Source of the DNA: Blasia pusilla | Lineage: Eukaryota | DNA: 64,000 nt | Assembly: GCA_050084515.1 (NCBI GenBank) | Contig: CM114271.1 | Span: 806,001-870,000, forward strand | Reading direction: 5' to 3' | Part shown: piece after piece, positions 1 to 62,791 of the stretch | Position numbering within the stretch: the first letter of the stretch is position 1 | How the letters are laid out: each line of letters begins with the position of its first letter | The notes under the pieces: generated by a model | The model's database searches: none | Seen by the model: the letters and a program-made list of their open reading frames with translations, nothing else | Told to the model about the DNA's origin: nothing | Position numbers and translations under genes: made by a program

Positions 1-960
1 CGAGCTATACTTTGCCTCTGTAGAGTTGTTCGAGCCACTAGCATAAGCCACCACAAACTCTCTACCATCATCTTCATGCTGGGTGAGCATGGCTTGAAGC
101 CCCAACATGCTCCAATCGGTATGCAACTAGAAAGGACGCCCCCTGATCCGTCTCCTCAATATGGGCGCAAACATCAATCTATCCTTGAGCATCTGAAATG
201 CTCTCTCTTGTTCATCCCCCCAGTGCCACCCTTGATCCACCTTGGTCAGCAAGGTCAGCGGCTTTGCAATCAAGCTAAAATCCTTGACGTACCGTCGATA
301 GAAGTTCGCCAATCCCGTGAATGCACGAACTCGACTCACATCTGTATGGCGTGGAATGCGTGGAATGCGTGAAATAGCCTCTGCCTTTATCTGTTGCACA
401 CCAAGGCCCCCTAGGTATATCGTATGACCCACGTACTCAATCTGGTTGTAGAAGAACTTGCACTTGCGTGGATGTAGCTTCAGCCCATGTAATTGCAATC
501 GTCAAAACATCTCCTCTAGATGTTTCTCATGCTCCTCAACCGTGGCGCTAAAGACTATGATATCATCAATATAATACCTAGCAAAATCCACACCTGCCAA
601 GATCCTATCCATGACCCTCTGAAACTCAGCCAGGGCGTTCTTTAACCTAAATGGTAAGAATCGCCATAGGTACAAGCAATCCTTCCCGTGAGGATCGATG
701 CCCCAAAATGCCGTCTTTTGCCTTTCCTCCAATTTGATAGGCAATTGATGGTATCCGGCTTGAAGATATAATGAAGTGAAGACCTTTGCATGCTTGTAGG
801 ATCGTCGGAAGAGCGGTGTATCACTCGACAACTCAATGCGGATCCCTGGACCCTTCAGTGTACCAAAATCATGCATACTTAATGCAAAACATCTCCTATA
901 ACTCCTAAGGAACTAGTGTATCCGGCGCCGCTCTCCTCTTGTCAACTTAGGGCCAATATC
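1..960 (-). pseudogene. pol: Ty3/Gypsy reverse transcriptase and RNase H (disrupted, with internal deletion)
   Basis: GYHQL, KTAF, LPFRLKNA, YIDDIIVFS, KCKF, GLANFYRRYVKDFSLIAKPLT, LHTDWS and VVAYAS motifs. The N-terminal RT segment is deleted near 790 relative to the copy at 62.2-62.45 kb. Confidence 0.95.
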
Positions 961-1289
961 TGGCTCCCAAGTCTCCATCGTGACTATGGTAGGACTCTCC
1001 GGTGCGGATGTCAATGGTTGTTATGGTGCAACCCCGTCTCGGATAATAGAACTCTTATCTCCACGCGCAGTACCCGAAACCATGCTTGATGCTGTGGCTA
1101 TCATCTCCTGGCGTATCTGCAAAACATCCGAAGAAGTCCAAGGGTACCTCTCCTGATCACCCCTGGTGTGTCGATCTCCTCGAGTCTTGCCCCCGGCCAT
1201 TGCCTCAACTATCTCGGTAGGCATGGGCTCACCAACGCAACAGTTGTGATCTATCTCATCCTCAAACGACCTTGCTCAACTACTCCTAA

Positions 1290-2240
1290 GTTGAGAATCC
1301 ATGTTAAGCAGTTCATGTCCATCGCCTGATCCAAGACATGATGTCATGATGCCTTTGATAGTGACGGTACTTCCATCACTCCTAGGGTAATTCCATCGCT
1401 TGCTCTCGCTCATCGGCGTTGGGCTCCACCAACCTCTGTACTTGGTCATCCCAAACTAAGCCAGGTCCGGCCTCCTTGTATGCAAAGGAAGCAAGAAAAC
1501 TCAAAAATGTGGGAATGGTTTCCCGTGGCATGCCAATCTTGTTGACCACAGTCAACGATGGTCGATCAACGTGCCTCATTGCCTGTGATCGACGACCTGG
1601 ATCCACAATAGAATCCACCAAAAAATCTAAGGGGCGCTCCACTCTTGCATATGCCCTCCGAAATACCTCGTGTGATACCAAGTTTGTCCACCAAAGACAC
1701 GGACGATATGCTCGTGAACCCATACTCGCCGCATCCAACAAAACTGCCGGGCCGATCCATGCGCGCACCTGATGTGCATTCGTCACCACACAGGACCTCG
1801 AATCATCCAAAATTGGTACATTCTCCAGAATGTATGCTCGAGGACGAGATTGATGCTCTTGCAAGTGTTGCAAGATCCACATCATCTCCCAAAACAACAT
1901 GGACCGAGAGTCAGCTAATCCGCTACCTCGTCCAGCACTTGACAGGCCCTAACATGGCCAACCAGCAATGACCACGACTATGGCCCCTACCAGTTCCAAG
2001 TCCTGCACCCCCAACAATGAAATGTCCCTTGGTAGGGAACTCCGGTAACCCTGAATGGCGGACGCAGACAAGAAGTTAGGAAAACGGAGGCGTAACTATG
2101 CCACATGGTGAAGTGAAACGCGCCTCATAACATCATCAATCTCAACGTATAGGTATTGTTGTACGCGCACTCATGCCTACAAAAAATAGCTAAACTAGTG
2201 TTGATCCCTCCAAAGAGATCCAGCACGCGAATGCCCTTCT
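1290..2240 (-). pseudogene. C5-cytosine DNA methyltransferase domain embedded in pol (disrupted)
   Basis: Motif I GIRVLDLFGGI (2203-2235); II YVEID; III RDI; IV GWPC*G (CAG>TAG at 1949-1951); VI YILENV (ENV 1817-1825); VIII DAASMGSRAYRPCLWWTNL; IX EPNADEREQAMELP; X-like HVLDQAMDMNCL. All occur in canonical order. Confidence 0.92.
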
Positions 2241-2639
2241 CTGGGATGTACCACACAATCGGGGTGGTGTCCAAAGGGGTCATAGCAGCACTCCTGGCTA
2301 CCTTGGGTTCCTCTGACCCATCGCGCTCTAGTGCAAACGCCTCACTCCACCCTGTCTGTACATGCTCATCGGATAAACGTCAAAGCTCTTCACTCAAGCC
2401 CCACAACGACATCTCTCCTCCACAGAATGATGCGGCTACCATAACACTCCTCTCCCTAGACATGTCAAGAATGGGAGTATCCTCTGCATGTCCCTCAATC
2501 AAATTACTAGGCCAAGTGATGGCATTGCTAAATGCTGCTAAGGTTGCCATCTCTCATGGCTGTCGCTCGATCACTGCACATGTGAATCAAACGGGTAATG
2601 AGCTAACTCGCTCATCACCTGACTGCCATCCTAGTCTCT

Positions 2640-3228
2640 AGGACGTTGACTTCTCCTAGTAATCCAAGGAAAACCCTATCGGATATAACATTGCTCCACC
2701 AACCAAGACATCCTAGGACTCTGCATCAATCACTATCGCCTTGGCTCGCACCACGGACTCATCTGTGGGATGTCCCGGGCGAATCCTCACCACGAGCTCA
2801 TGTTGGGTGATATAATGTGTGGTACTTGCTCCATCCAAGGATGTCTATCTCCGGAATGGACAACGCTCCACATCGGCTCTCGTCAAGCCCAATCCTCTGA
2901 ATGACGCTTTCCCCAACATCAGGGGTTGCGCTCCTGAATCCAACAAGACGCGCTGCGGACTAAAAACTCTACCTCCTGGACTCACCAACTGGAAGACCTC
3001 TCCCCGGTTATCCAGAAACACAACACCAGGAGAAGCCATGGTACGCTCTATCGCGGGTCTAGCCGGCATCTCCGCCATCCTAGCAACCGCAGCCTGCCAT
3101 GAATATGACGTGGACGGCCCGAGTATCCGCTCCAAGGGCAGGTCCATGACCTCCTTTGCAATCACCTCTAAATATGATGCAAGAGCTCCAACTCCATGCT
3201 CACATAGCGAAGCGGCCAACAGGACCAC
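2640..3228 (-). pseudogene. Retropepsin-type aspartic protease domain
   Basis: RVLLDSGAQPLMLG active-site motif, with a downstream DVLVG-like motif after a frameshift. Confidence 0.85.
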
Positions 3229-4336
3229 CTAGTGTACGATCTCTAGCCCACCCGGACCAGCTATTTGCTCTGGTGCCCTCTGTGGCCCTCGGTTCGGACG
3301 TAACTCAGGGTCTAAACTGAAACACCTGGCATGTGTATGACCATACCTCTGACAATAGTCACGCTGATAACCTTTTGGTGTAGCACCATCTCCTCCTCCA
3401 TGTTGAGGTACACGTCCTTGACCCTGACGAGCGCAATCACGCTGATGATGGGCTCCACCACATGACCAACAAGTAATCCTAGGCGGTTGCTGCTGAGCCA
3501 TATATAAAGGCGCAGATCTCTGTGATACGGTTTCCCCGTATCCTCCCTGAGCTCGTGGTGCCATAGTTGACCTATCTCGGAGTCCACGTTGTTGCACTAG
3601 TGGTGCAGACAATCGTGACTGCTCTCGCCCACAACCCATGGTGGCTACGCTCTCCTCCGTCATGTTGCGCTCAATGTTCTCGACGGTCCTAAAAACATCT
3701 CTCAACATAGGGGAGGTGTTCATAAGAAGCACCCCTCTCGCACCCATGTCCGCACGGTCCGGTCGAGCATTGTGTACATGACTAGATAGCCTGAGCCTCT
3801 ATCACCCCCTGAGTGACGTTGATCAACCAACGCAAGCGAGTGTAAGACTCACGCAAACTCTTGCCTGGGCGCCTCTGGAAGTCGTGGATGCTTTGTAACT
3901 TCTCCGTCCATATCCCCTGGTAGCTCGTCCTCAACTTAGGGAAGAACTCAACCACGGGTTTGAACCTAGGATGAGCCCGACTAGATGGTGCAAGTGCTCC
4001 AATGCAAGTGACCCCTCCTAAAACATCACTAGTGGAAGAGGAAGTAGTCTCTCTTGATTCCTCCTCCTCATCTAGGAACGGCTCCGTCCATGACACATAG
4101 TGTGGGTCATAGTAGAGTCACCATGCCTCAATCTCCTAGGCATATCTGTGGGAGAATTCATGGTAATCGTCCATGGGCGCCCCCTCTAAATGCTGGAACA
4201 TACCATTGCATGGTGTAAATGGATTTAACTCTCTAGAGTTTGTAGCCCGCTGTGAGTCACACCAACTCCTAAACTCCGCCATGAAGTAGAGTGTAAACTC
4301 TAGACATCCCACACAGTCTATGTCCCCTAAACCCAT
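3229..4336 (-). pseudogene. gag: Retrotransposon gag (disrupted)
   Basis: Gag-like FQRRPGKSLRESYTRLR motif and two degenerate Zn knuckles (CWSCGGAHHQRDC; xDYCQRYGHTHARC). Split by stops and a frameshift. Confidence 0.8.
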
Positions 4337-4414
4337 ACATCATTGATGCTCCTAGCATCTACACAAAACCCAATATCCCAAATAACTTCCTAATACCCAA
4401 AAATCCCTCACACG

Positions 4415-6176
4415 TGTAGGGCACGACACCATAATGGGTAACTTGACAATAATGTCGATGTCGCTCCTCGACAGTTGCAAATCTCGACCCCAACTCGGTC
4501 GTGAAGACAAATCCTCCTCGATGTGCGGTGCAAATCCAGTGGTCCAATGCGGCACTGGCACTCGGCACGGCACTCGAGAATGGGGTGCGGCACTCGGTGG
4601 CATACCCTCCTAAATCAGCAATTCACACGCTCTACTCCTTCACTAAGAATCCGCAATGGAGATGGTGCGGTGCAGCCATGAGCGGCACGGAGCGGCAATC
4701 GGAGGCGCGTTACGGCTATGGGCGTCACCGCACAGTACTTGATCGTCGTCGAGCGGCTACCAATCACAACATAGCAGCATGAAATGAAAACTCAAACCCC
4801 ATCACCTACCATTACTAGTTGATGACGAGATTGCAATTACGGTGGCGGCCAAAACAAAGTACTTGGTGGCGGCGCAAGTCAGAGAATCAACGGTCATCGT
4901 GGAATACCCTCCGCTTCGTAATAGTGGCAATGGCAACCAAGGGTGGACAACGGCCGAACGCGGCTCTAAGCAACGCTAGGCGGCGGCAACGGCCGACGGT
5001 GGACGGTGAAGGTTGACTGTTTAGGGTGACGGTTGACCATTTAGGCCGACCGGTGGACGGTGACGCAAACCGTTGACAATTGACGGTGACAGCCGGCGGC
5101 GGCGCGGCTGCTGGTTTAGGGTTTGAACAATTTAACCATTAAAATTGCCTAATAATGGCAATTTTGCAAGATTGACCATAACTTTTTGCTCACAACTCCA
5201 AATTATGCACTGTCTATTGCACAATGTGCACAACGTCATGATCTACGACTGCGTTAAAAATATTTTGAATCAAACATTCCAATAAAATTGACGGGATTGT
5301 CGTAAAGCCCAATGTCTCGTTCTCCTACACAAAATTTGGCAGCGCTTTCGTGCTGATTTCTCCCCCAAAAAAATATAAAACCTGTGAGAACACAAATCAA
5401 CAAACTAGATGGTGCTCCCAAGAGCACTGACATGGAGCAATCCGCCCCCATACTCAATTCCTATCAAAAATTGGTTAGCGCTTCCGCGTGCCACTCTCTC
5501 GTACAAAAAATCAGCAAAGAAAAACAGCAAACTCGCACGGCTCTTGCTCTGGTGAGCACTCCCATGAGCCATGAAGCGTTTAACACGGTCCCCCAACCTG
5601 CACCAAACATCGAGCAACCAGGGAGCTCCCCTATGAATCTCTCTCACTCACTCATTCTCTCTTTGTAAAATAAGACCTCTCGCAACACCATAGTTCTTAC
5701 ATGTGTACACTCTCACATGTCTCTCTCAATGTCAAACCAAACCCATTCTCCTAATGAGAGGCTTGGGTTATACACACAAGGCAAGCAAAACCATAACTCC
5801 ACAGCCTCATGCCAACAGGTTCAACAAAGAGAGAATGAGTTCTCAAGCTCTCTCTCCTTGAGATATACCTCTCCCCTCTCCCAAGCTCTCTCCATGGTAA
5901 CCTATGCTTCCAAGTCACCTCCTTGGCTCTTGACCTGATGTAGGAGGTCAAGGGAAACTTACCAAAAATAGAAAGTCGACCATATACTTAAAATGGTACT
6001 TACCTAAAATAGTAAGTTCCTCAATATGGCTCCAAATGAGCCGAAACCAAGGGGAAACCTACTCTCTCAGGTTTCCTAGGGCCTCAGCAGGTCATCCTCG
6101 ACCTCTTGAGCGTGTCCTCCACTACTCGTGAAGGCGCTCTACTAGATCTCACCGATCTATCCTAAAAGACGTGACA
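4415..6176 (-). repeat. 5' LTR (plus possibly 5' UTR) of the DNMT-Gypsy element; 3' boundary uncertain
   Basis: Begins with TG at 6176 and is colinear with the LTR segments of 61157-64000 down to about 4800. A candidate ...CCCTACA end lies at 4415, but no canonical tRNA PBS was recognised. Confidence 0.7.
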
Positions 6177-7976
6177 CCTATCTTGCTTATATCACATACA
6201 ACCCTACAATTTGGTGTAATAGTTGCCTCATGAATAATATAAATATTTTTGGGAACGAGATTTATCATGCCATACCGCCTCTATTATAAACAAGAATAAG
6301 CCTCCACCAAAAAAATTATCAGCCATATGACACCTCGAGTTTTTCTAGCAGCACTACTAATAGTTGTTGTAAACCCTTTCAGCGCACTGGCCCCATACTT
6401 GTTCATAAACTAATATATAAGATTGAACCCTTCATACTAATTATATTTTAATAGGAGAGAGTTAGAAAGAGTTGAATTAGGAAAATGTGTTGCAACAGGT
6501 ATATATTGAGCAATTCACAATCCAAAAATTGAGATTCTTGATTGACTTACTCAATCAACAATCGGTTGGAGATGTAGAAACCAAACCACGTAATATGTAG
6601 TGCTCAAAGATACCACTTCTTTGATCAAATAGAACTTTTATCTTATAATTAATTATTTTTCATCATCCACTAAATAACTTAAATAAAATGTTCATTGATT
6701 ACACAACATGCTTAAGCATGTCTTTAGACTTTTCTTTCTTTTATGGTTTTTCTATTAGACCCCACTCAATGAAGGTGAAGAATATTTTTCTTTTCAAACC
6801 TATCTTTGATAAGTGGAGCCTCACAACAACTATAAATGCATGGGTTGGATAAAGATTTGGTTCTTTTTTAATTGAATAATGGAGCTTTTGGTAGGTGGAT
6901 TATTTGATGTATCTACAACTATTCTACTCTCATCACATAATAGAGGAACAAGAAACGGTTGTGCCTTAAAATCAATAAACTCTTCTTCAATCAAATCAAA
7001 AAATTTGAAAGCAAGATAGGGTTGAGTAAGATCATGACCACCGTCACACGCCTTTGGGATTCCAATTGCTTTCGGTAATATACTTCTAATCTTGTATAGT
7101 TGAGCATAATACTCCCACTCATTTAACCTTCTTTTTTATTTTATTTTTTTAATCCATCCTATTTTGTTCCTTAATTTTTCTGGCTAATGATTTTATAATT
7201 AATTTGAATTTAAAGAAATCGCAATTGATTGTGACTCAGATTGTCTTGGTTGCAATCGTAAAAATAGAAATCTTCTTACAAATTTAAGAAAAGTTATCTC
7301 TACTATTTACTCCATTGAATTGTAAGACCTAAAAACAAGACAATCTTGATCACTAAGATCCAAATCACTATACTCTACATTTATGACAAATAAGTGAAAA
7401 AGCTTACCGGAAATTAGCTTATCGAATGTATATTTCAAACACTATTCCAACTTGTAGCTTCTTTAGGTCATGCCTTCTTCCTTGATAAATATAATTCGAT
7501 CTTCAAAAAATTACTAAGATTTGAAATGAACAAATATTCGTTACATTGGAAATAGTAAGAAACATGCAATAAAATCATTATATCCACATGTAATGACAAC
7601 ATTTGAAGAAAATGACATGAGAATGAAGGTTGTGTTAACTTTGTCATTTCTATATTAAATATCTCATAACTCTCGAATTTGTGGATCACTATCATAAATT
7701 AGGCTACAAGGTTGATATTTTGACTAACTCATTTGGATAATAACTCAAGATTAGAGGCTTTGGTAAAGGTTAATGGCACAAACTAGAGGCTTTTATACAA
7801 CCATGCACATCAATCGTGCTTTCTTTTGGAAAGGAACTTGTAATGATAAAAGATTGATCCCAACGAGGATCAGTTGGAAAGAATATGTTCTAAATTGGAA
7901 TAGTTAGATATAAATTATACTCAAAATTTTCTAGATGAAAAAAACTTGATGAAATGAAGGAAGAAATAAACAAATA

Positions 7977-8005
7977 CTAGTAAGGTGCGCCGTGTGATGC
8001 ACGGG
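7977..8005 (-). mobile_element. Helitron 3' terminus (hairpin plus CTAG|T)
   Basis: Minus strand reads CCCGTGCATCACACGGCGCACCTTACTAGT. Confidence 0.6.
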
Positions 8006-10899
8006 AAATAAAAAATTGTTTGAAGAGTTAGTGTATAGCCCGTGAAATAAAGAGATTAATGATGTTGCACATAAATTCAAAATTTTCTTGTTGAAATGAA
8101 AAAAATGGAAAAAATAATTATGGGAAGACGAAACAAAATTGGGAAGAAGGGGAAAAAATAAGGAGAAAAGGGGGTGTTAAATTTTATATATATATAGAAA
8201 TTTGCCACTTAATTTTTTTAGTATAGAGCCACTTAATTTTTTTTTAAAGGGCTAGGTTCAGGCAATTGAACCTAGCCCTACCCTAAACCTTTTACCCACC
8301 CAACCCTTCACGCCGTTGTCGCCGCCTCCGCAGATCCTACAGCTCACAACATTTTTGCGAGATCTGACGGCCCAGACAAACCAAATGTTAGATCTTTAAT
8401 CTAACGGAAACAGCCCAAGGTCTGAGTGACCTTGCGCTTTCTCCCTCCCCCCTTCGTCCTACCCCAATTGCCCCACCCTGCAATCCCTCATTTCTCGTAT
8501 CTCAGTGCCGTCCGCTCTCCTCAATCATGCACTCGATGCACTCTTGAGTGCACGAGGATCCACATCTCCCAACTCGATGTCATCCTGTCGTTCTACGCTC
8601 TTGAGAGCACATGGGGGTTCTCATAAGCGCTCGAGAGCGCGCGGATCTTGACTCCAACGTGCTCGAGTGCAACTTGGGTGATTGGGTTGGGCTCTCTTAG
8701 TTTCTCTCTCTTGTCTGCTCTCCCTCCCTCCCTCTCTCCCTCCCTTGACCTTATTGCCTTTGAACGTCCCCCGTACCCCCTCCACTCGAACCCAATTTCC
8801 CATCAACTGGCTCTCCTCGCTGCGGCTCATCCCGCTCTCCTCTCCTTGGTGCTGCCATCGAAATGCTTGACCTGTAGCTCCACCTATGCTTTGGCCAGGG
8901 CTGTGTACTCGTGAGTTTTGCATGTGTGGCTAATGCGTCCGTGCTAGATGTGGTCGTGGACATTTGACGGAGCTCTTGTTTCAAAAGCTCGTGCTTGAGG
9001 AGCTTGTGCTTGAGTGTTTAGCAACAAGCCCTGTGGCACTAAGGATTGTCACACTCCTGTTGGCAGTGAGGGCATTGCGAATTGTAGCTAGGAAAAAGCC
9101 CCGGACTTACTACCTTTCCTTTTTTTCTTTGTCTCGTTATTTCTTATTACAGTGAGCATAGGCCCGACCCTCTCTACTCACAGGCGCCGCTCACGCCGTG
9201 GTGACCAACGACTCTAATATTCTGCTCTCTCCCTGTGAATCCCAAACACCCATCATCACTTTGCATAGAACAAAGCATGGCATCCACTCCCGCCGCATTG
9301 ATAGCCCTATGCTCTTTTGCTCTTCCTCACTATGTTGTTCCTGTCCCCTAAGGTAGATCCGTGTTGGAACGTTGGGGCTCTAAGTGGAGTGCAGTTTTTG
9401 TGATCGAAGTCTCTCTATGGTCACGGTGCAAGCATGCACCGTGGACTCTTGATTGGTCTACTGATTTTATCTCAACTCAATATGAGATATAACCTGCATG
9501 AGAAAGATTCTCTTCCGAGATGGCTGCCCTCTGGCTAACTTTTTTGATTTCTTGTGGCAAATTGGTAAGATCTCTTCAGTACTCGAGCTGAGTACTTGGG
9601 TTTAGGGTGATAGGGTAGGGGAGACGTTGTAATCAGACATTCACACAGATCTATTCCCAACAAAGCTTCCGTTTGCAATAAGCTTTCAATTCAAAATAAG
9701 CTTTATATGGATGCTAATTTTGCTTTCTACTTTCACATGTAGACTCTGGCTCTCTAGATCTCAGAATAGTTATAACACCATATGAATATTTAAGACTACA
9801 CACCTTCACATCTTTTCCCATATATAGGGCTATATTTAGTCTCATGCGTATGTGGGGTGGACCTAATGGGCACTTTCAGGCTGACCGGGGACTCCCTCTA
9901 AGAAGGTGAGTGATCTTTTCATTTTTTTGCAGAGCCTTCGTCGAATGTGCTCTCTTTGTCATTGTTGGGCCTCGTTAGGTGATATTGAGGGCTCCCCTGG
10001 TTGTCATTTTGAAGTTGTAGTTCTCTTGCCTTGATCTATGCTGCACGATTGTTTGGAAGTGTTTGCAGATATGCGTGGTGACTTGGGAGCCTGGAGAAAC
10101 TTCAACTCGGGAGGCAAACCTAGAGTTACTTTCGACTTGGGAGTTGTTGGAGACGGAAGCCGACTTGGAAGCTGATGGAAGTCAATGTTTTTGGAGACGG
10201 GAGCTCCCCTACACTTGGGAGGTGAGCACAAAACTACCAACCGCACAACATGGACACTCGGAAGTTGAGCAATTGGAGACTAAGGCGACTTGTGAACTAA
10301 GCTATGGGATTGAAGATCGGAAAAATCTCCCATATGCACTATGCAATGGCTTCCTCATAGATTATCTAATTCCACATCCATGCCATTTTTATGCATGTGA
10401 CCTATACACTTTAGGCCAACCCCGAACCCATATAAACGTTTACATGACTCTTGCATATGAGATAGATACTTAATGTTCATCCCCTACATGTGCAATTACT
10501 ATCCATGGTAGACTCAAGGATAGGGGTAGAAATTCAATGGATTTCATAGAGGATTCTTTTCAGTTACATCACTTCTAGATTCCCCTTTAATTGGCTTCGA
10601 TCTTAGTAACACCATGTCTGGGGTCAATCCTCAATCCCAGAGGGAATTCAACATATTTTCAAGATCAATCTGGAAATTAATCCTTTGTATAAAGATGATA
10701 GGACACTTACAGAATTACCTAATCCTACCTCCGGCTTAGAGATCCTTCCGTCATCCTCTCTCCAAAGCATTATTAAGGCCTCCCAAGACAAAGGACAAGT
10801 TACACATAACATTAAGCATGATCCTTACCACAATGACTTGAACATACTCCAAGATATTTCATACTCCTTGCCTATCCAAAGACGAAGCTCTATTGATAT

Positions 10900-13800
10900 C
10901 TTTGATAATGGTAGCATATCTTTGCGGGCAGTTGTATCTTCTCGAGACAAACTTCTAACGGACATTTGAGGCATATCCCATTTTTATTCCCTTTCCACTG
11001 TGGGTACTTTACAAGCAGATCTACATTTTCTGACTATATTGAGCAGCGGACCCATAAGCTCTTCAACATATTTTCACTATTCAAAACGTATCCACTACTA
11101 CTGTACCAACTCCACCAATCTATTGCCTTATGTTATACTTCAAAAAACTTTGTTCTTAACAAAGAACTGGAGCGTCTCCGTAGAGATAAGCCTCATTTGG
11201 CAGATGAAGAACGGTATCAACATCTATCAAAATACTATGTTAGCCCCCAGATCCCTCGTAGTCCTGCTTGGCACTGAAGGCATCTTAAAGATCTGAAAGC
11301 TATGGTGCACAAGTGGGGAATGCCCCATTTATTCCTAACACTAACTTCAGATGAAGTCTCTACGACTCGATGGGTAGCATTTGATGATATTGATGTTATC
11401 CTTCAGCAATTAAATCCAAATTTCTCATGGCATGACGCTCCAATTGAATGTGCACAATTGTTTCATACTAGGCTTCATTCTTTTCTTTCCTTGTTCGTCT
11501 TCTCAAGACCCCGAATACTAGGTAGAGTGCACAACTATTTGCTGCGTTATGAGTTGCAGGGGAGAGGGAGTTTACATTGCCACATAATCCTGTGGATTCA
11601 CCTAGATGATGTTGACAAAGTAAACTCATAAATATATTCATACATTCCTTCTCTTGATCATGTCCTTGGTCATGAAAACCATAGCTCTACTAGAATAAAT
11701 CCAAGTGCAATTCTATTAGATCTAGTCCTCCATAAGTAGTTGCACAAGTGCAACTAGAGTATTTGCATTATCAAAAAATAGAAATAGAAACTCTATTGTC
11801 ATCTTGGGTTCCCAGCTGATGTAAATACGAACACAAGAGCTTTTATTGATCCACTTACGATCATATGGAAATATTACCGTCCCTTATCACAACATCGTAA
11901 TATCATCCCGTACCATCCTCTTTTGTTGTTGCTATGGGGGGCACGCATGAATGTTTAAAGAGTTACAAATGCTGAGTGGTCATTCTATTTGCTCAAATAT
12001 GCCTTGAAATATGAATCTACTCGCTCACTAGATATTGAGACAAAATCATCTAAATGCCTCGGTCTTGGTGGTTTGGAAGAAATAAAACTTCGTATGGTAT
12101 CAGGAGTTTTTCTCAAAAGATTTGTATTCAAATTTTGGTGATATGCATGTCACAAGTTGTCCATTACATTGACTGCAATCCACCATCAAGAAGAACTTAC
12201 CTTTACAAATGTGCTTCTATTCCATGTATTCATCCTACCACTCTCTATGCTAGTAGGCTAGCTACCCTCCATGCCCTTACATTCTTCCAATACTGGTCCA
12301 CACACGAGTTATTGAAAACTTATCCAAAGACAATTGGTGACAAAGTTATAGGATTAGATAAGTTAGGTAACATTTTCAGTACCACATTTAGACTTGTGAG
12401 ATTTACTGAATTTCATCCACTTCACCAATGGAACAAATTTTTCTTCTTGGTTCTTCTTGACAATTTCACTTTCACACCTGACGATTCAATCCTCTCATTT
12501 CATGCTGAAAAATGGACATATACATATCTGCATGAATGTTTATAGAAGGGTATAATCAAGGATATGAAAGATATTCAGAGTCTTATAAGAGTACATGCAC
12601 AAAAGAACTCGTGGAGTAATGTCCACAAAGTTTAGATGCTTGCCAATATAACTACTGTTCTTCAGCCTGAACTCACATTAGATATCCACTCAATATTTAA
12701 TCTCCACTCAGTTGAGGATCAGACTGGTCATGACCCTTGTGATGAACCATTTCTTGAACCACACATAGCTTGCTTAATCTTGAGCAGAATAATATATTCC
12801 TTCAGCTCGCTTATATCAACTCTGGTCTAGTCCTTCTTAAAGGTGCCTCGGGTTGTGGGAAGTCTTTTTTCATTTCATTTATGTACAAGTACTTGAAATC
12901 AAGGAAAATGTCACCCCTCCTCACTGCCACTATTGGTATAGCAGTTGTGAGTTTGCACCAGGATGCAAGTACAGTTCACTCAGCCTTTAGCATCCCAATT
13001 AGGGAAGACCTACCATCTATACACACAACTTTTGATTGTCATATCAACCTCAAAGCTTCCAAAGTTATTGTTATAGATGAATTTTGTATGTTAACAACCA
13101 AGATCCTGCAAATAATCATAATGCGTATTAATGAGGTAACAAGATCTACTAGCAAGGATATACTTGGTGACAAGTTGTTGATTCTTGTCGGATATTTGTG
13201 TCAACTACCACCTGTCTGTAGCCATAAAGTTTCTAGCTATTGTCATGGTTGCCACATTAGCTCATCTCCATTCCTTCTCAATGTCCTCTCATTTCAGGTA
13301 ACAATACTTGTCCGTCACTCTAATGATGAGTTTTTTTATAAGTTCCTTACATCCATTAGGTATAGAATGCCCACTCAGCCAGATTGACGAGTGCTTAAGT
13401 GACTACTTCGTGATTGAGGATGAGGCAACCAACTTCATTAGCTCAAATACAACCATCATTTGTACCCACTATGAAGATGTCGCTCTATTCAACCTCCTAA
13501 CCCTTGAGAGGGTTTTTGAGGATGCTTCCATCATCAAAGTCAATGTTTTACCATATGCTACTTCAAGACCAACATTTAGTGGATGGTTGAATGATGAATC
13601 TTTTCATCAAGTACCATTCATTGCGCTTCATTGCCGAGTTATGATTACATCAAATTAATGTCAATCTAAAATGTCAAGCAGCCAATGGGTCCTTGCCAAA
13701 AATTACTTTGATCCTTCTTGGCAACAATTACAATATTATCTATGATAATGATGAGCTATTACATATCATTTTCACTCTTGACTTTAATGCAAAGTCCATC

Positions 13801-14067
13801 GGAATTAGTAGAACCAACTTCTCTGCTCTCAAGTATGATTCAAATAAGAAATTTACCAAGAGGAGATTTCCACTTATGTTAGGATATGCTATGACTACTC
13901 ATAAGAGCAAGGGATCCACAATACATGGGCCTTGCCTCTTAGTTGTCAAATCAATCTTTGCTTTAGGTTTAGTTTATGTGATGCTATCTAGAGTTAAGAG
14001 AAGGAACCAAGTCAGAATTTTAGAATCACTGTCACCACCTGATTTTGTTGTTTTTGGTCAGGATTAG
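10900..14067 (+). pseudogene. Helitron-superfamily RepHel (HUH Rep plus PIF1 helicase), decayed; Helentron/Helitron2-like
   Basis: Rep: WGMPHLFLTLT, RYELQGRGSLHCHIILW, FYLLKYALK (about 11983-12009). Helicase: KGASGCGKS, IVIDEF, GYLCQLPPV, FPLMLGYAMTTHKSKGST, VYVMLSRV. Fragmented over several frames. Confidence 0.92.
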
Positions 14068-18693: not shown

Positions 18694-21600
18694 CTATACA
18701 GTTTTGGAAGAAGTGGAAGATGAGCTCCAAGAAGAATCATCTAAGAGATCTATAAAAGCTGGAGGGGAGAAGGGGGCGGGAAAGTGGGGAGAATCATCGA
18801 TGCTTATGGATTGGAGGATGGTTTTGGTGGTCTTGCTTTTACTTTCATCTATCTTAGAATGAAGTGGAACTTGTGAAGTGGCCTTGACATCAACAAGCAT
18901 GCGGACCACTTCTCGCATGCAAGGTCGTTCATCGGGCCTCACATTGGTGCAAAAGAGGCCTATTCTCAAGACCATCATCATCTCCTCTTGCACGTCTAAT
19001 GGGAGCTCACCCATTCGTTTGTCCAATGCTGATGTCAATACTCCATGCTTCTCACGGAGTCTAAATTGTGTCCATGAGCGAAGATGCTCATCTTCTCCGT
19101 TTTCCTCCTCCACCGGCCTCTTCCCAGTCACGAGCTCTAGAAGAACCACTCCATAGCTATACACATCGCTCTTCTCACTGGCTTTCATTGAGAAAGCGCA
19201 CTCTGCAAGCCAAGCAACCACATAAATTAAGAACCGATCGTCATCAACTCTTCTCATTCTCTCCAATCCAATAATTGTATCAACCTAAAAGCTAGTGTTT
19301 AGACCCACTTCCAAAGTGTGTCGGAATATTAAGAATTCTCTTTTAAGAATATAGACACGAAACCATAGAACAGCATAGGGCCTAGCAAGTGAATATGCTT
19401 AGGAGAGGTATGTAGTTGCACATCCTTCTCCTAACGTTAATTCATGTCCACCAAAATTTGTGTGTGATTTTTCATACCAAAAAAATGGTCTCCAAAAAAT
19501 AATTGCCCATCATTAACTTCACCTACCCTAAATGTATAACTAAATATATATTCTTGTTAATATACATTAGTGTATACCAATCTTGTTAATATATATAATA
19601 CATTAATATACCATGTTTAGTCGGGTGAAGGGACCAACCATGAATCAAATGAAGAATAATATAATATAATAATCTAAATTACTAATAATTAATAGCACTT
19701 TTTTAGAAGGAATTGCTTTGAGAAGCGAACGATTCGCGAAGAGAAGTGTCCGGAGAATGGAGAAGTGAAGAGAGCGATTTGCGAAGAGAAGTCTTCCGAG
19801 AAGAGAAGAGAAGAGAGCGATTTGCGAAGAGAAGTCTTCCGAGAAGAGAAGAGAAGAGAGCGATTTGCGAAGAGAAGTCTCCGGAGAAGAGAAGAGAAGA
19901 GAGCGATTTGCGAGCAGATGCGACAGAATGGGGCAGAGGAGAGAGAATCGAAATCTTACCCGGGGCGATGTAGCCATGGGATCCCACCACGTTGGACATG
20001 GTGTGCATCTGCTGAATGCCCTGCAGGAGCTTGGCCAGTCCGAAGTCCGCGAGTCGCGCTTCGAAGTCGTCGTCCAGCAGAATGTTGTTGCTCTTGATGT
20101 CTCGGTGCAGGATGGGAGGCACGCAATCGTGATGGAGGTACGTGAGGCCCTGCGCCGCGCCCAGCGCGATCTTGTACCTCGTATCCCAATCCAGCATCCC
20201 TCCCTTGGATCCGTGCAGCTGGTCCGCCAGGGACCCGTTGGGCAGGAATTCGTAGACCAGGAGTTTGGTGTCGTCGTTCGCGCAGCACGCCAGAAGCTTG
20301 ATCACATTGTTGTGGCGGATGTTGCCCAGAGTCTCGATCTCCGCTCGGAATCCGTAGTCGTAGGATCCCGCACCGAGCTCCACGCCTCCCTTCAATTTCT
20401 TCACCACGAACGCCTGCTCCTCCGTCCTCGTCCTCCCGCGGTGCATTTTCCCGGCTCGGATCTCGCCCCTGTACACTTTCCCGGATCCGCCACTGCCCAC
20501 CACATTGTCGTCGTCCAGAGTGCTGAGCACATCTTCCAGCGTGAGATCCGGGAGCGTGTGGAACATGATGATGCTCCACCGATTCTTGCAGCACTTCTTG
20601 CCTCTCAATTTCCTGAATCGGTCGGAGTAGCAGCACAGGCAGAGGCACGAAGTGCAAGTGAAGGGCACCAGGACTCCGGCCAGAACCAGCAGGATGAGAG
20701 TGAGGCCCGAGCTCCTGGACCTCTCTTGCGATCTGCTCAGGGGGAATCCGCAGGGCTTCAGGAGCTTCTCCAGCTCCGCATCCGCTGCACAGAGATTCGG
20801 ATTGCCCTCGACATCGCTGGCATTCAGCAGTGCGAAGAAGCCGAGGGCGCTCACTGGCCCTTGCAGGTTGTTGTAGGAAATGTCCAGCACTTTCAGGTTC
20901 TCGGCGCTGGACAGCTCCAGCGGAACCAGACCCCCTAAACGATTGTGCGACAGGGTCAGCTCGTTCAGATTGGGCATGTAGGCGAAAGACGGAGGGATGA
21001 CGCCGCAGAACTGATTGTAATCCAAGTAAAGCAACAGGAGTTTTCTGCAATAATTGATGTTCATGGAAATCTGCCCCGACAGAGAGTTGTGAGAGAGATC
21101 CACACGTTCCAGATTGGGAGCCGAGCACAGGTCGATGGGGAAACTTCCGTTCAGAAGATTGTCCGAAGCTTCGAAATCGATCAAGCCGCCGAGCTTGCCG
21201 AGCTCGGCTGGCACGGTCCCCGTCAACCGATTACCCGAAACTATCAAGCTCTCGAGCGCGGAGCAATTTCCAAGCTCCGCAGGGATGGCACCGGTGAGAT
21301 TGTTGTACCCTACCTCAAAGAAATTCAAACTCTGAAGAGCTCCTAAACTCTTGGGTATACTACCCGTCAAGCGATTGTTCTGGATGCGGACACGCTCCAG
21401 GGTCTGGCAGATACCTAGAGATTCCGGGATTGGTCCCGAGAATTTATTGTCGAACAGAAGCAACCTCTGCAGTTTGCCCATGTTGCAGAAGCCGGGCGGG
21501 ATGGGACCCGAAAGAGAGTTGTTGATTGCATCGAACTTCAGGAGCGGATTGTTCTGTCCCAAAGTCGGAGGCAGTGGTCCCGTCAGAAAATTGTCGTACA

Positions 21601-22726
21601 GGAAAACGTCTTCCAGAAGACTCATTCTTTCGAACAGCCCCGCGGGAACCTCCCCCGAGAGATTGTTGTCGCTGACATGGAATAGTGTCAACAGTGTCAG
21701 ATTCCCCAGCTCCTCCGGAATGGAGCCAGACAATCGGTTGCTTGCCAAATCCAGATTCCCCAATGTCGATGCCAGCTTCCCAAGCTCCCGCGGCATGGAG
21801 CCACTGATTTGATTAGAATACAGACGCAAAACTTCAATACTGCGAAGGTTTCCGATCTCTGGGGGCATCGGGCCTTCCAGCATGTTATAGGAAATGTCCA
21901 ACATGCGCAAGCCGTCCATGCCGCCCAGCGATGCAGGAATTGTTCCGTCGAGGCTGTTCACCTGCAAGTACAAGGTCTGCAGCTTCTTCAAATTCCCCAA
22001 CGACTCAGGGAGCCGCCCCACCAAGCCATTGGTATTCAGGTCAAGATACTGGAGATTGGTCAAGGTTCCAATGCCCGAAGGAAACCCCGAGCCAGTGAAG
22101 AAATTGCCGCACAGATCCAGGTACCATATCACTTCTTGATTGGCAATATCCTCCGGGATGTTACCCGACAGCAGATTGTTGTGCAAATCCAGAACTTCTA
22201 AGCTGATGAGATTCTGGAAGCCTGTGGGGATGGTCCCGCTGAGGTTATTGGTGCTGAGGTCGAGGTGGCGGAGCGATGTCAGATTGAAGTACGCAGGCGG
22301 AATTGGACCCGTGAAATTATTGAACCTCAGGGAAACGTTGAGAAGAGTATCGATGTCTCCTAAACTCGCCGGAATCGGACCCGACAAGAAGTTCGATCCC
22401 AGACTCACATTCTGCAGAGATTTGATGCCTCCGATACTCTCTGGGAGCGTACCCGAAATGTTCAACGAATTGAGGATGATTCCCGTTACCCGCCCCTCAC
22501 TGCAAATGATGCCGTTCCAATTACATGGAGTTGCATCCGATTCGTTCCAATTGTCGAGAAAACCCCGGGGGTCATCCACCACCGCCTTTTTGAACGCCAT
22601 CAGAGCTTCGCCGTCGGAAGACAACGCCGCTACACACGCAACGCTCAGCATGAGACAGCAGCAGCGAGCCCACGCCCGCAGGCGGCCCTCCTGCCCAGGA
22701 AGACATGCCCTCCAAAATCCCGACAT
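18694..22726 (-). CDS. Leucine-rich-repeat receptor-like Ser/Thr kinase (LRR-XI-like); exons 22726-19960 and 19202-18694, about 1091 aa
   Basis: Signal peptide, LRRNT (WNESDATPCNWNGIIC), about 20+ LxGxIP LRRs, GNPNLC cap, TM helix, and kinase motifs GSGGSGKVY, HRDIKSNNILL, DFG. A GT-AG intron at the conserved GYIAP|E position restores the frame (3276 nt total). The ORF-track start at 22813 is a GTG; the first ATG is at 22726. Confidence 0.95.
19720..19915. repeat. Intronic minisatellite, 38-43 bp unit (GAGAAGAGAAGAGAGCGATTTGCGAAGAGAAGTCTTCC), about 4-5 copies
   Basis: Direct tandem repeats inside the RLK intron. Confidence 0.9.
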
Positions 22727-24265
22727 TGTCCTCTCCTTCTCGATTCCACAGAACCCGTTCACGCTATTGTTTCCTCCTCCGACCAACGTGCGTTCCCTTC
22801 GCCGCCGCTTCACTCTGTTGTTCCCACTGTGCTCTTCCCTTCCCCTTCTCCCGCACCCCTCCCATCATTTTCGCCCCCTAGAGTTCCCATCATTCCTTCT
22901 TGAACATCTCTCTCTCTCTCACACACACACAAGAGGAGGTGCAGCTGAAGGAGGGGACCTGGATCAAATTGTGTAATCAGACGGTGCATTGATCAGCTCA
23001 ACACGGACAACCTCAACAAAGGACCATCAATACTGTGATAATAATGCATCGCTGCAATTTGGGAGAGAGAAGAAGAATGATTTTTAGTCCACGGGAAGCC
23101 TAACTGGACTATGGAACCCCTTCCACATGTGTGATATTGACATCCGACAGAGAGATCAAGAAAGGACGCTCAAGAATTCTGACCGAAGCAGTGCGTGCCA
23201 TCGGGAGCCCGGACAGAAACGTTGATAGCGGAAAAGAGCGAATTGAGACAAGAAGGAAGCAACAGAATCACAGCGTCGCCACCGAAGAGTGGAAGAGCCG
23301 AGAGGAAGGGAAAACAGGATCAAAATGCACTCCCAGAAAGCACGAGCGCTCTGGCAAAAAAGAGGCCCCTGAAGAACCACCGCAGCGCAAATCCTCCCTG
23401 AGCGATGAGCCCAACGTCCTTCGGGTTCAAATCGCATGCACACGGGACTCTGGAGCGAACGAATGAGTGAGACACAGTGAGTGACAACAGTCTCTGAGCG
23501 AGTCACGATGTGCACAGTGGGAGCTCTTCTGTGCGTGCGCATAGTGTGTGTCAGCGTATGCGCCAACTCATCGCGACAGCTCCGAGTCACGCCGTATTAT
23601 TATTGCGACCGCAGGACCACCGTATCCACGAGGACCAGAATCTGTGCCGGGGTCGTGCGGAGAGTCGGAGTCTGCGTGGACGGGACCCGGCATCATTCCG
23701 TCGGACGCCGTCCGTCTGTCTCGCGGTCACCCGCTCACACTTCTGGCCCACCCACTCACCGCCCGTCATTCACAGGAGCTTCGGGAGTAGCTCCGGATAG
23801 TTGAAGGTAGGTTGAGATCCTCGTCCAATTGGCCGCGAACACTACGCGACATAAAGACGGGTATTTATGTTTTCCTCCGAGAAAATAATAAAAATGTGGC
23901 AATCAACGGTGCACGAAAATCAATAATCTTTTTTTTATTTTATTCAATTTCTGAGACCTCGGTTGTTCCGGGTCTTCATTTCAAGGTTATCAGTACGTCC
24001 CATAATTTATTACGGGTCGACTTTCACTATATTATTCAGAAAAGACTATAGTTCAAAATAAACTTCTTTTAATTGAAAATAACTAAATTCATTCAATATA
24101 TATATATACGTGCGTTTCTCCACGTGCGTTCATGCCGTGGGTCGTTTGTTCTCCGCACCATATTCACACCAATAAAACTCTTTGGAGTGAGTGCTAATCT
24201 CATTTTTATCACTATGGATTGGTGCCATGCAAGGATGGGGTCCTCCTTAATAATTGAGGTTTAGA

Positions 24266-37029: not shown

Positions 37030-37410
37030 GTTGTCTCATGCTCAAGAGGTTCAGCAAAGAGAGAATAAGCTCTCCAAGCTCAATCTCCTTGAGGTATACC
37101 CTCTCTCCCCAAGTCTTCACTTTCGTGACCTACGCATGCATGTTGTCAACTTGTCACTTGATCTTGAGTATACAATAGTGGTTCAAGAGCCATTTTTCAC
37201 AAATAGAAAGTCAAAGCTTACATAATTAGGCTACTTACCTAGAATAATAAGTTCCTCATATGATCTCCAAATGGGTCTACATGAAGGGTAAACCTATTTA
37301 GCAAGTTACTGTACTTCCCTATAGATCATCCACTAGAGTTTTTGTGCGACGCCATGGTCATTACCATGGCATCGCACAAAAACTCAATTTTCCACTATAA
37401 AAGATGTGAC
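37030..37410 (-). repeat. Diverged LTR fragment of the DNMT-Gypsy family
   Basis: Similar to 5805-6176 (AAAGAGAGAAT..CAAGCTC..CCTTGAG..TACTTACCTA..AAGTTCCTCA..TAAAAGATGTGAC). Confidence 0.75.
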
Positions 37411-38124: not shown

Positions 38125-38891
38125 CAAGGCTCGGACAGTACCGGCATCCTTTGTAAAGGCTGCCGGCAGAAATGAAGATTTTCCGACAACCAGCTTTTAG
38201 GCCCGGGGACAAAACCGGAGAGGGAAGAGGTAGCGCCGGCAGTGAGAGTGCTGAAGTCTTGAACGCCGGCCAGATTTGACGGCCGGTTGGACTTTCCGCG
38301 CAGTGTAACGGGATGTATTCAAACCGCCAAGCATTTTTCCGACCGGAGGAAGGAGGTGCGGGCCGGCAGTGTCAAGAGGGTAGTGGACAAGGGGGAGTGT
38401 GCGAGTTCATCCGGCCGTCCCTTCTAGGGTGCGGATGATCGGAATCATCGGACGGCAAAGTGGGAACTTCGGGACTTGCGAGTCGGGGAGAGAGGGAGGG
38501 GGAGTAGGGTCGAGCCCGGTCGACCGTGTTCGTCTCATTTGCAAATGAGACCGTGTTCGACTTTTTTGCAGAAAATTCTCTCGAGCCTGCTCTCTCCTCC
38601 TGGTTGCTTTCTTTCTGCGGGCCGCGTGACTTGCGTCAGTGCTTTTTCGTGCAACCGCTGCAAATGGCTCGTTGTCGCTTTGGGCGCCATACCGCAAATG
38701 TCGCTCGCCGCCGTCTTGGGCGCCTAGGGATCGGACTCATCGGAGCTTCAGCCTTCTCGTTAATCTCTCAGCATTGCGGCAAAGACAGACAAGCACCCTC
38801 ATCGGCTCATCCTCATCGTGCTCTCTGTCTCAGACGCTGCCACAGTTCGGTGACCTTCGGAAGTTCGGATGCTGGTACTGTCCGAGCCTTG
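38125..38891. mobile_element. Non-autonomous TIR element (hAT-related) with 25-bp TIRs
   Basis: CAAGGCTCGGACAGTACCGGCATCC ... GGATGCTGGTACTGTCCGAGCCTTG (1 mismatch); no TSD seen. Confidence 0.8.
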
Positions 38892-40042
38892 GTCGTGAGA
38901 GAGGGAGGCAGGGGAGTAGGGGTCGAGCCCGGTCGACCGTGCTCAAGGCATTTGCCGCATTTGCAACCTTATGATGTTTTGCAGCAAATTCTGCTCTCTC
39001 CTCCCTGGCTACTCTCTCCCCGTGGCCGCATGACCCGCGTCTGGGCTTTCTCTTGCAGTCTGTGCTTTCTCTTGCAGCCCTGCTCGTCTGCTCGTCGTCG
39101 CCTTGGGCGCCTAGGGATCAAACTCATCGGAGCTTCAGCCTTCTCGTTAATCTCTCGGCATTGCGGCAAAGACAGACAAGCACCCTCATCGGCTCATCCT
39201 CATCGCGCTCTCTGTCTCAGACGCTGCCACAGTTCGGTGACCTTCAGTCCAGTCTGGTCCGGAAGCACAACTCACCCGACGCGAAAAGAGAATAAAGGCC
39301 TCACCGTACCTCTTCGGCATCCTCATCAGGGCTCGGACAGTAATTTTTAGAAGATTAGTTTTTTACATTTAGATCAAGGGAGTAGGGGTCGATTGTGCTA
39401 GAGGCATTTTATGAGTTGCAACTCATTTCGCTCTCTCTCCTCCTCGAATCTGAATGGTCGTGGCGCGATATTTGCTTACTCTCGCTTGTCTTGGGCGCCT
39501 TGTTGCTTGATTGCTCGTTCTTATTATGTTCGCTCAATCTTTGATTGCTCTCGCTGCTTTCGATCGCTAATTCACGCTGCTCCATGTTTGCAGATTGTAA
39601 AGCTTGCGACCACCGCACCGTGAGGTGTGAAAAAGTGGAAGAAATCGGACGAAATCGGCTGTCTCATCGACTTCGGGAGTTGGACAGCGAGTGTAACTCA
39701 CTCGAGTCTCGACGCTCATCCAAGCCTCATCCCTGCTATTAGGACTCAGGTTTTGGGACTCGGGGGAGAGAGTTGGGGAGACCCAAGACACACCTTGCAT
39801 TCTCCTCCTAATCGCCACTCGCTTATTTTCCTGTATTCTCTCAGGAGTTAGGGAGTTGGGGCCCGAGGGAGTAGGGGTCAGGGACTTGGGTTTTCGTTGC
39901 ACTCTTGTATCTCTCTCTCTCTCGCTCTTTGTTGAAGTTTTGGGAGCCTTTCATTGGTTTCAGAATTTCAGAAACCCTTGAAACCGTTTGAGCCTAAACC
40001 CTTTACAAAGGGTTTCAAAGTAGTGAACTCTCAAAGTTCCTT

Positions 40043-62498: not shown

Positions 62499-62791
62499 GC
62501 CATATTGAGGAACTTACTACTTTAGGTAAGTACCATTTTGAGTATATGATCGACTTACTATTTTTGGTAAGTGGCCCTTGACCTCCTACATCAGGTCAAG
62601 AGCCAAGGAGGTGACGTGGGAGAATAGGTTACCATGGAGAGAGCTTGGGAGAGGGGAGGGGTATACCTCAAGGAGAGAGAGCTTGAGAGCTCATTCTCTC
62701 TTTGTTGAACCTCTTGGCATGAGGCGGCGGAGTTATGGTCCCTTGCCTTGTGAGTGTAACCCGAGCCTCTCATTAGGAGAGTGGGTTCGGT

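Follow-up and report, generated by a model that had tools for sequence, protein, structure and literature searches.

Does a retrotransposon of a land plant encode its own DNA methyltransferase, and if so, in which part of its polyprotein? This question is raised by a stretch of 64,000 nucleotides (nt) of Blasia pusilla DNA (contig CM114271.1, positions 806,001 to 870,000), here called the window. Its positions 1 to 6176 hold, on the minus strand, the 5' part (approximately the 5' two-thirds) of a Ty3/Gypsy long terminal repeat (LTR) retrotransposon, which is truncated by the window edge. A preliminary description, made from the sequence alone, had placed a C5 cytosine methyltransferase (MTase) domain between the protease (PR) and the reverse transcriptase (RT) of this element, and the placement was borne out by collinear tblastn matches and by the Pfam profiles PF00078 and PF00145. 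Window 1-6176 is very probably a degenerate copy of a Ty3/Gypsy family in which a DNMT3-type MTase is encoded in the Gag-PR frame, before an in-frame stop and a second open reading frame (ORF2).

Layout of the window copy

All coding parts of 1-6176 were found on the minus strand in the open reading frame (ORF) listing. Read from 6176 to 1, the order is LTR, leader, gag with CCHC knuckles, protease, C5-MTase, in-frame stop, RT, and the start of RNase H (RH). Read depth was taken from reads under the same organism label, one genomic run and three RNA runs, which were mapped to window 1-9000 at a likeness of at least 80%. The 5' LTR was assigned to 5700-6176. At its outer end, 6176, it begins with TGTCAC; blastn similarity to a second copy in the window ends at this position, and the genomic depth beyond it drops from approximately 2800 to less than 1. 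Immediately beyond 6176, the consensus of host read ends is similar to what directly precedes the 3' LTR in relatives, in keeping with 6176 being a genuine LTR terminus. The inner end, placed by a drop in depth near 5700, is approximate. Both depth and relatives favored an LTR of about 475 nt followed by a long leader, and an LTR spanning 4800-6176 was rejected on these grounds. A target-site duplication was not established for the window copy, which has only the 5' LTR with its TG start at 6176. The observed/expected ratios of CpG (element, 0.74; LTR, 0.34; flank, 0.66) were uninformative on methylation history.

The noncoding leader between LTR and gag (4340-5699, minus strand) contains no long ORF and had a genomic depth of 713 to 1216; relatives have approximately 1.2 kb at this place. 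The gag region (3301-4315, minus strand) was matched by tblastn to residues 17-354 of the Marchantia protein P0010 with 38 to 45% identity. It carries two CCHC zinc knuckles at about 3322-3474, CWSCGGAHHQRDC and CQRYGHTHARC, both in ORF 3229-3798, and it is interrupted by stops and, near 3735-3785, by a frame change. The aspartic protease and a linker follow at 2380-3228 (minus strand; residues 545-895 of P0010), with LLDSGAQ near 2926-2946 in ORF 2845-3228. Seven in-frame stops fall within the protease-matching stretch 2188-3228. A Pfam scan of the gag and protease ORFs of the window gave no match at E 0.01, and both regions were identified instead from Marchantia proteins that match them collinearly in tblastn. 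In relatives, the stretch homologous to the protease matches Asp_protease_2 (PF13650). Downstream of the MTase (1227-2290, minus strand), a TAA followed by CAA CCA occurs in frame at 1021-1023 (minus strand). It is homologous to the stop between ORF1 and ORF2 of relatives and represents a candidate readthrough site. ORF 1021-1275 is in frame with ORF 502-912. RT, together with the beginning of RNase H, occupies 1-1020 (minus strand), where PF00078 scored 43.8 bits and tblastn matched residues 696-1042 of the relative P0018; RT_RNaseH_2 was weak in this region (16.4 bits). The Ty3/Gypsy order of gag, PR, (DNMT), RT, and RNase H start is present in the window, and the full order with integrase (INT) was found in relatives L001, L004, and others.

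A DNMT3-type methyltransferase

Motifs I to X, for which we take the numbering to be that of the C5-MTase literature, occur in canonical order in the window MTase and are spread over three frames. Motif I, VLDLFGGINTSLA, lies within 2125-2379. Motif II, YLYVEID, stands in a different frame past a frame break near 2175, and motif IV reads IAGWPC and then runs into a stop codon. Motifs VI (YILENVP), VIII (SRAYRPCLWWTNL), and IX (EPNADEREQAM) follow, and motif X, VLDQAMDMNCLTWIL, is located in the third frame, within 1227-1394. The full set of motifs on one strand that the preliminary description had listed was thus recovered, as was the PF00145 match that it had proposed to look for in a frame-corrected translation. 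With two TAG stops read as X, window 1385-2170 (minus strand) scored 39.6 bits (E 5.7e-10) against a curated cut-off of 22 bits, and the second copy at 62760-63290 (plus strand) scored 40.7 bits with one TGA read as X. Relatives score 27 to 51 bits. The longest intact MTase ORF of the window, 188 amino acids (aa), reached 21.8 bits alone, just below the cut-off.

A family profile was built from six family sequences and searched against the PDB, yielding 45 matches at E <= 0.001. The best 29 were DNMT3A, DNMT3B, or DNMT3C (best E, 5e-14), and the next were plant DRM (2e-7 to 1e-5) and then M.HhaI (1.5e-4); DNMT1 was absent among the 45. The alignment with DNMT3A was collinear over motifs I, IV to VIII, and IX to X, with no circular permutation. 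An AlphaFold model of the relative P0005, based on a 53-row alignment, had a predicted local distance difference test score (pLDDT) of 85 and a predicted template modeling score (pTM) of 0.84. When this model was compared to the PDB using Foldseek, DNMT3A/3B/3C catalytic domains were found throughout the matches listed, at E of ~1e-18 and a target TM score of ~0.8. AGWPCQGH, ENV, an R..W.TNL block, and an EPNA.E.ERAM block were invariant in nine aligned relatives. Judged by sequence comparison and predicted fold, the family MTase is DNMT3-like and unpermuted, which agrees with an earlier reading by eye as DNMT3/DRM-like but lacking the DRM permutation.

Named host DNMT3, DRM, and Klebsormidium sequences were not among the protein database matches, a search limited by word prefilters and length windows, so that this is no evidence of absence. 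In a distant, alanine-rich relative, P0017, ECQ replaces PCQ in motif IV; this protein may be a nonstandard or inactive variant. The ESM Atlas returned only "C5 methylase, Streptophyta" again, and the phage clusters that it also listed were disregarded.

Relatives and their domain orders

The window MTase as a query retrieved 15 longer proteins, from Calypogeia fissa (59% identity), Marchantia (nine), Sphagnum (one), and metagenomes, and a Marchantia domain query retrieved 73 proteins of 702 to 2237 residues. Over both searches, at least ten Marchantia proteins, one from Calypogeia, and two from Sphagnum were obtained. Six relatives (four Marchantia, one Calypogeia, and one Sphagnum) were collinear with the window by tblastn. 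The four Marchantia polymorpha proteins, of 1150 to 1330 residues, all begin their match in gag, and in two of them it extends into the first part of RT. A HMMER search of 1.84 billion representatives gave 7442 matches at E <= 0.001, 1480 at 1e-10, and 453 at 1e-30; the best 150 of the 7442 were mostly long polyproteins. Probe typing detected retroelement domains beside the MTase in 191 of 243 fetched proteins and none in 52. Pfam domains appeared in the order DNMT-RT-RH in P0018 and P0021, CCHC-PR-DNMT in P0025, and PR-DNMT in P0029 and P0033.

Two layouts were distinguished. Type A (gag, PR, DNMT, RT, RH, INT, PHD) is represented by the window, Marchantia, Calypogeia, Sphagnum, and many metagenome contigs. 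Type B (RT, RH, DNMT, INT, PHD), in which a homologous MTase follows RNase H and precedes integrase, is represented by a "pol" of Scenedesmus sp. PABB004, a Monoraphidium pol fragment, and many metagenome proteins; its members include L043, L059, P0038, P0046, P0064, and P0107. Automatic typing of the 243 domain-bearing proteins yielded 111 of type B, 31 of probable type B, 49 of type A, and 52 untyped, proportions that mean little because the queries used to gather the protein sets were of type A and the profile was mixed. In a FastTree phylogeny of 209 MTase domains, the PR-DNMT architecture required 10 changes, and one relocation was not cleanly separated from several. This tree holds retroelement-type sequences only; both window fragments were dropped, as they cover less than 60% of the profile, and several rows were long-branched or of odd composition.

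In both architectures the integrase is followed by a terminal PHD finger, for example at L001:8053-8187 and at the ORF2 C termini of many loci. Chromoviruses carry a chromodomain at that C-terminal place, and the PHD finger is a candidate chromatin-targeting module. Direct LTRs were found in L048 (342 nt, 92% identical, 8.7 kb apart), L058 (344 nt, 91%), and L006 (at least 307 nt, 94%); they begin with TGTCAT and end with CA. A 2112-aa protein with a Copia-type RT (PF07727, RVT_2), P0245, matched the MTase profile weakly (E 1.4e-20), and judging from this sequence Copia elements may contain the domain too.

Two frames separated by a conserved stop

The MTase had been described as lying within pol. 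Its position between protease and RT stands, but in intact relatives it belongs to the gag-PR frame before a stop and not to the RT-INT frame. In L001, ORF1 (976-5082, 1369 aa) contains the protease and a PF00145 match of 51 bits and is ended by a single TAG. ORF2 (5086-8226, 1047 aa), which is in phase with ORF1, contains RT, RNase H, the integrase zinc and core domains, and the PHD finger. The same single in-phase stop was found in L003, L004, and L006.

Of the 71 loci found by scanning metagenome contigs, 40 span the end of the MTase and the start of RT. A stop (TAG or TAA) in the RT frame, with CAA or CAG and then two pyrimidines (CAR-YY) immediately downstream, occurred in 35 of the 40, and in 15 of those 35 it was the sole stop in the DNMT-RT interval. 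The contexts formed 11 clusters at 90% identity, and in an alignment of 125 nt around the stop the subfamilies were poorly registered. The TAA CAA CCA of the window occupies the homologous place in the RT frame, and Marchantia P0010 ends there as well. The Marchantia models that reach RT (P0015, P0018, and P0021) probably skip the stop via a predicted intron. In plant-virus work, CAR-YYA directly after a stop codon is known as the classic leaky context, with readthrough of the tobamovirus type. The conserved in-frame stop and its CAR-YY context suggest that ORF2 would likewise be made by readthrough.

Selection and the second copy in the window

For the two window copies of the MTase, 161 aligned codons gave a synonymous divergence (dS) of 0.69, a nonsynonymous divergence (dN) of 0.14, and a dN/dS ratio of 0.197, which means that most of the divergence arose under coding constraint. 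Among open-frame MTases, dN/dS was 0.12 for L001-L003, 0.168 for L004-L006, and 0.212 for L003-L006, the last being near saturation; three further locus pairs were saturated. RT-RNase H of L001-L003 gave 0.036. The MTase is under purifying selection, which is weaker than that on RT. A comparison of dN/dS across copies had been proposed from the outset, and its outcome for the MTase (0.12 to 0.21) is not near 1.

The second copy (61157-64000) is scrambled, a mosaic in both orientations according to blastn, ORFs, and translation. It consists of an LTR start (61157-61275, plus strand), RT-RNase H (61315-62498, minus strand), LTR (62499-62791, plus strand), a 494-nt DNMT fragment (62792-63285, plus strand), a short inverted LTR piece (63368-63401), and leader (63418-64000, plus strand). 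The DNMT fragment is 79% identical to the window copy at 1-6176, keeps PCQ and ENV, and contains one TGA; it sits between LTR-like and leader-like pieces, beside the antisense RT-RNase H. That this copy keeps PCQ, as reported earlier, was seen in its translation. It also had been used to argue that the domain belongs to the family. Family membership holds on the strength of read depth, relatives, and dN/dS, whereas the second copy, a scrambled fragment, is a weak argument for it. As far as its sequence goes, it attests a diverged family MTase but not, by itself, the PR-DNMT-RT context.

Three further LTR-like fragments lie in the window. One (37035-37296, plus strand), from the same or a related family, is 72% identical to 5806-6061 in blastn, and two (46046-46311 and 46628-46840, plus strand) are 70 to 75% identical to 5720-6176. 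Relative L047 contains a 468-nt inverted internal duplication (7858-8325/11923-12390) reminiscent of the scrambled 61157-64000, and rearranged copies may be common in the family.

Abundance and transcription

The family accounted for 106,493 of 12,434,590 sampled genomic reads, or 0.86%. Genomic depth was 2055 to 2695 over RT (mean, 2378) and 1953 to 2627 over protease and gag (mean, 2162). The four MTase bins had depths of 1613, 1844, 1760, and 1276 (mean, 1623), corresponding to 68 to 75% of the flanking coding regions. Depth reached 4733 over the outer LTR, and over 5701-6000 it was approximately 2.2 times that of the coding region. The majority of family copies carry the MTase, and a minority may be without it. 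From the read depth, the genome would be a few Gb in size.

In all three RNA runs, the depth over DNMT was 22 to 54 in the first-mate-plus orientation versus 0.15 to 5.7 on the other strand. This direction corresponds to minus-strand RNA, the sense strand of the element. Bins 7801-8700 showed the opposite strand bias, and the RNA libraries are therefore stranded. A joint at 1555-1995, which skips 439 nt inside the MTase and has 21 other letters between, was observed in 13 RNA reads over the three runs and in no genomic read of a 1% sample. Its ends are not GT-AG on the sense strand, and it is probably one transcribed deleted copy.

Decay of the window copy

Compared with Marchantia proteins, the window copy has at least four frame changes and, inside the matching stretches, 16 stops. 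One of these sits right behind the motif IV Pro-Cys, and the frame of the MTase changes near 2175 and 1394. In RT, a blastn gap relative to the second copy marks a deletion of approximately 240 nt at 791/795, with loose read ends at 789 and 795. Most genomic family reads differ from the window copy at many sites; counted by place, C-to-T (377) and G-to-A (393) differences exceeded T-to-C (250) and A-to-G (229). Many reads differ in length at or near 349, 1224, 1383-1384, 2486, 3731, 3776, and 4315. Several of these places are at or near frame breaks, so that the defects concerned look private to the window copy. The window copy is dead, a fossil, and in its wrecked state it encodes nothing itself, whereas the family looks alive or recently alive.

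Proposed role and alternative explanations

We hypothesize that most ribosomes halt after the MTase and release Gag-PR-DNMT, and that occasional readthrough of the leaky stop yields the full polyprotein; on the sequences at hand this is the course of translation that we lean toward. It is likely, with slightly more assurance, that in intact copies the MTase is active and that the protease would free it in Gag-like amounts, in the particle or in the cytoplasm. The enzyme may then methylate new cDNA or the integrated copies of the element itself, as proposed for algal retrotransposon DNMTs, a step put forward tentatively and by analogy. The C-terminal PHD finger would probably steer integration by reading histone tails, comparable to the chromodomains of chromoviruses.

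Several observations weigh against this reading of the family as a whole. The 3' half of the window copy, including the second LTR, target-site duplication, integrase, and PHD finger, lies beyond the window edge, and no primer-binding site was identified in the leader of the window copy. Nearly all RNA reads were less than 95% alike to the window copy; the transcripts thus come from other copies, and expression is a property of the family. The flank at 6301-7800 had a depth of 0.32 to 0.99, and with a baseline of approximately seven reads the absolute copy number is rough. MTase depth 25 to 32% under that of its neighbors could mean, beyond faster divergence, that some copies are without the domain. 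The strict CAR-YYA context was found in 5 of 40 loci, with CAA CCC in most. The 40 loci are related, 24 of them falling in the largest cluster, and are therefore not independent. Finally, P0140 encodes PR-DNMT-RT-RH-INT as one unbroken protein, so that the stop is not universal.

The broken domains in both window copies and a DNMT depth somewhat below that of neighboring domains would suit an MTase that is a fragment of a host DNMT3 gene, captured once and passively carried without a role for the element. However, the domain is collinear and complete in liverwort, moss-genus, and many metagenome relatives, the catalytic motifs are invariant in nine of these, and the dN/dS values indicate constraint. 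Together with the 453 representative clusters at E <= 1e-30 and the retroelement domains that accompany the MTase in most fetched proteins, this makes passive carriage very improbable. We give even less credit to a local accident, in which a nested insertion or an assembly chimera would have joined DNMT and Gypsy in the window only. The mosaic structure of the second copy and the inverted internal repeats of L047 would be in keeping with it, but the gag-PR-DNMT-RT order recurs in independent records of other species, and genomic reads cover the PR-DNMT and DNMT-RT stretches by the thousands. Among the loose ends listed there, small differences peculiar to the window copy account for those with high counts (789, 795, and 1385).

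A more serious competitor, although still an improbable one, accepts that the MTase is selected and assigns it to RNA methylation, to action in trans on host chromatin, or to service as a noncatalytic partner or decoy of host methylation factors. The ECQ of the distant relative P0017 points in this direction, and an abundant first frame that encodes the enzyme would also suit a role outside the particle. On the other hand, the catalytic Cys, the Glu of ENV, and the S-adenosylmethionine (AdoMet) motif are kept in close relatives, which speaks against a purely noncatalytic role, and the predicted fold best matches DNA-bound DNMT3 structures. In addition, according to the accessible text of PMC5890265, algal retrotransposon DNMTs methylated CG de novo in a heterologous host. 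A wider scenario is speculative and, taken whole, rather unlikely: one old, Viridiplantae-wide Gypsy lineage would have a DNMT3-type MTase and an integrase-linked PHD finger, the bryophyte MTase would have moved into the Gag-protease frame before a leaky stop, to be made in the amounts of a structural protein, and thousands of transcribed copies in large bryophyte genomes would make it a real contributor to de novo methylation. If this were true, a transposon-encoded DNMT3 would add to de novo methylation in land plants, both that of the element and perhaps that of host DNA.

Other features of the window

Next to the element, 7801-8100 and 8401-8700 gave plus-strand transcripts, with a bias opposite to that of the element. 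At 7974, 8027, and 8697, loose read ends are sharp and highly consistent and resemble splice sites. Stretch 7801-8100 is itself repeated, with a genomic depth of ~118. A Helitron remnant at 10610-14067 (plus strand), broken into several frames, scored 69 bits for Helitron_like_N and 71 bits for a PIF1-like helicase. A hAT-type transposase remnant with a zinc finger, a weak DUF4371, and a hAT dimerization domain lies at 39998-42305 (plus strand).

A plant-type leucine-rich repeat (LRR) receptor-like kinase gene at 18694-22864 (minus strand) comprises LRRNT_2, many LRRs, and a kinase domain split by an intron; it is GC rich (~55%) in AT-rich surroundings. A P-type pentatricopeptide repeat protein is encoded at 53029-56637 (minus strand) in an uninterrupted ORF of 1202 aa, counted from stop to stop. 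These plant-type genes, the Helitron and hAT remnants, and the fact that the nearest homologues are proteins of liverworts and mosses indicate that the host is a land plant and probably a bryophyte. Two direct repeats of 156 nt, 96% identical and 387 nt apart, were found at 38703-39245, within a GC-rich, ORF-like stretch.

Comparison with known systems

In the literature searched, as far as its text was available, retrotransposons with an enzyme of this host-silencing class are in print only from dinoflagellates and one charophyte alga. A bioRxiv preprint (10.64898/2026.05.21.726589) and PMC12344493 refer to "streptophytes (Gypsy-DNMT3)" or to retrotransposon DNMT3s "in streptophytes"; both cite PMC5890265, and the portions available name no land plant. 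No Gypsy element with a DNMT was reported from any land plant, liverworts and mosses included, in the full-text literature searched or in the available text of PMC11982613, PMC6453930, PMC9033089, and PMC12885004, with subscription journals and supplements beyond this search. To that extent, the earlier statement that such elements had not been described in land plants agrees with the literature; nevertheless, homologues from Marchantia, Calypogeia, and Sphagnum are already contained in public protein sets.

The relatives in the model liverwort Marchantia mean that the gain to a transposon from its own DNMT is testable in tractable plants with methylome tools. That the enzyme is encoded in one frame with Gag and protease, ahead of a conserved stop, provides a concrete and testable clue to dosage, and the possibility is raised that part of the de novo methylation capacity of bryophytes is transposon encoded.

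Compared with the host de novo methyltransferases DNMT3 and DRM, the family MTase has its best sequence and fold matches in DNMT3A/B/C and shows the DNMT3 motif order. Unlike them, the family MTase is without PWWP, ADD, the companion domain of plant DNMT3, and the DRM permutation, and it resides inside a retroelement polyprotein. Its motif VIII-IX stretch looks longer than that of DNMT3A, as read by eye from the alignment.

Among retrotransposons, SymbioDIRS-Dnmt3 and SymbioLINE-Dnmt of Symbiodinium are described in the available text of PMC5890265 as C5-MTases under purifying selection, which is a likeness to the present family. They belong to other classes (DIRS with a tyrosine recombinase and LINE, respectively) and to dinoflagellate hosts. 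The same text proposes self-methylation of cDNA as the role of the Symbiodinium enzymes and regards the acquisitions of MTases by retrotransposons as independent.

The Gypsy elements of green algae (Scenedesmus sp. PABB004 pol, KAF8056149.1; the Monoraphidium neglectum pol fragment; and many metagenome proteins) carry a homologous MTase that is 35 to 42% identical to that of Marchantia, with E values down to 1e-65. They resemble the present family in RT, RNase H, integrase, and the C-terminal PHD finger. Their MTase lies between RNase H and integrase, whereas that of the window family lies between protease and RT. No printed description of these RT-RH-DNMT-INT-PHD elements was found, and their names are those of database records.

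The closest known system, compared by description, is KnitGypsy-Dnmt3 of Klebsormidium nitens. According to the accessible parts of de Mendoza et al. (2018; PMC5890265), an unrearranged Dnmt3 is embedded there in a Gypsy Pol, key residues are kept, the ratio of nonsynonymous to synonymous substitution (Ka/Ks) is <0.2 between copies, and copies are few. A legend in that paper shows its repeats arranged as in DIRS, and the element was read as a lineage-specific acquisition. Both systems are Gypsy-type, encode an unrearranged Dnmt3-like MTase in the polyprotein, and occur in a streptophyte host. In contrast to the charophyte Klebsormidium, the host here is a land plant, with relatives in liverworts and Sphagnum. 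Where few copies and DIRS-like repeats were described for KnitGypsy-Dnmt3 in the text available (PMC5890265), the window family makes up ~0.86% of genomic reads and its relatives have ordinary direct LTRs. The present family extends what is known in its land-plant host range, its abundance, its frame organization with a conserved stop, and its link to the green-algal elements.

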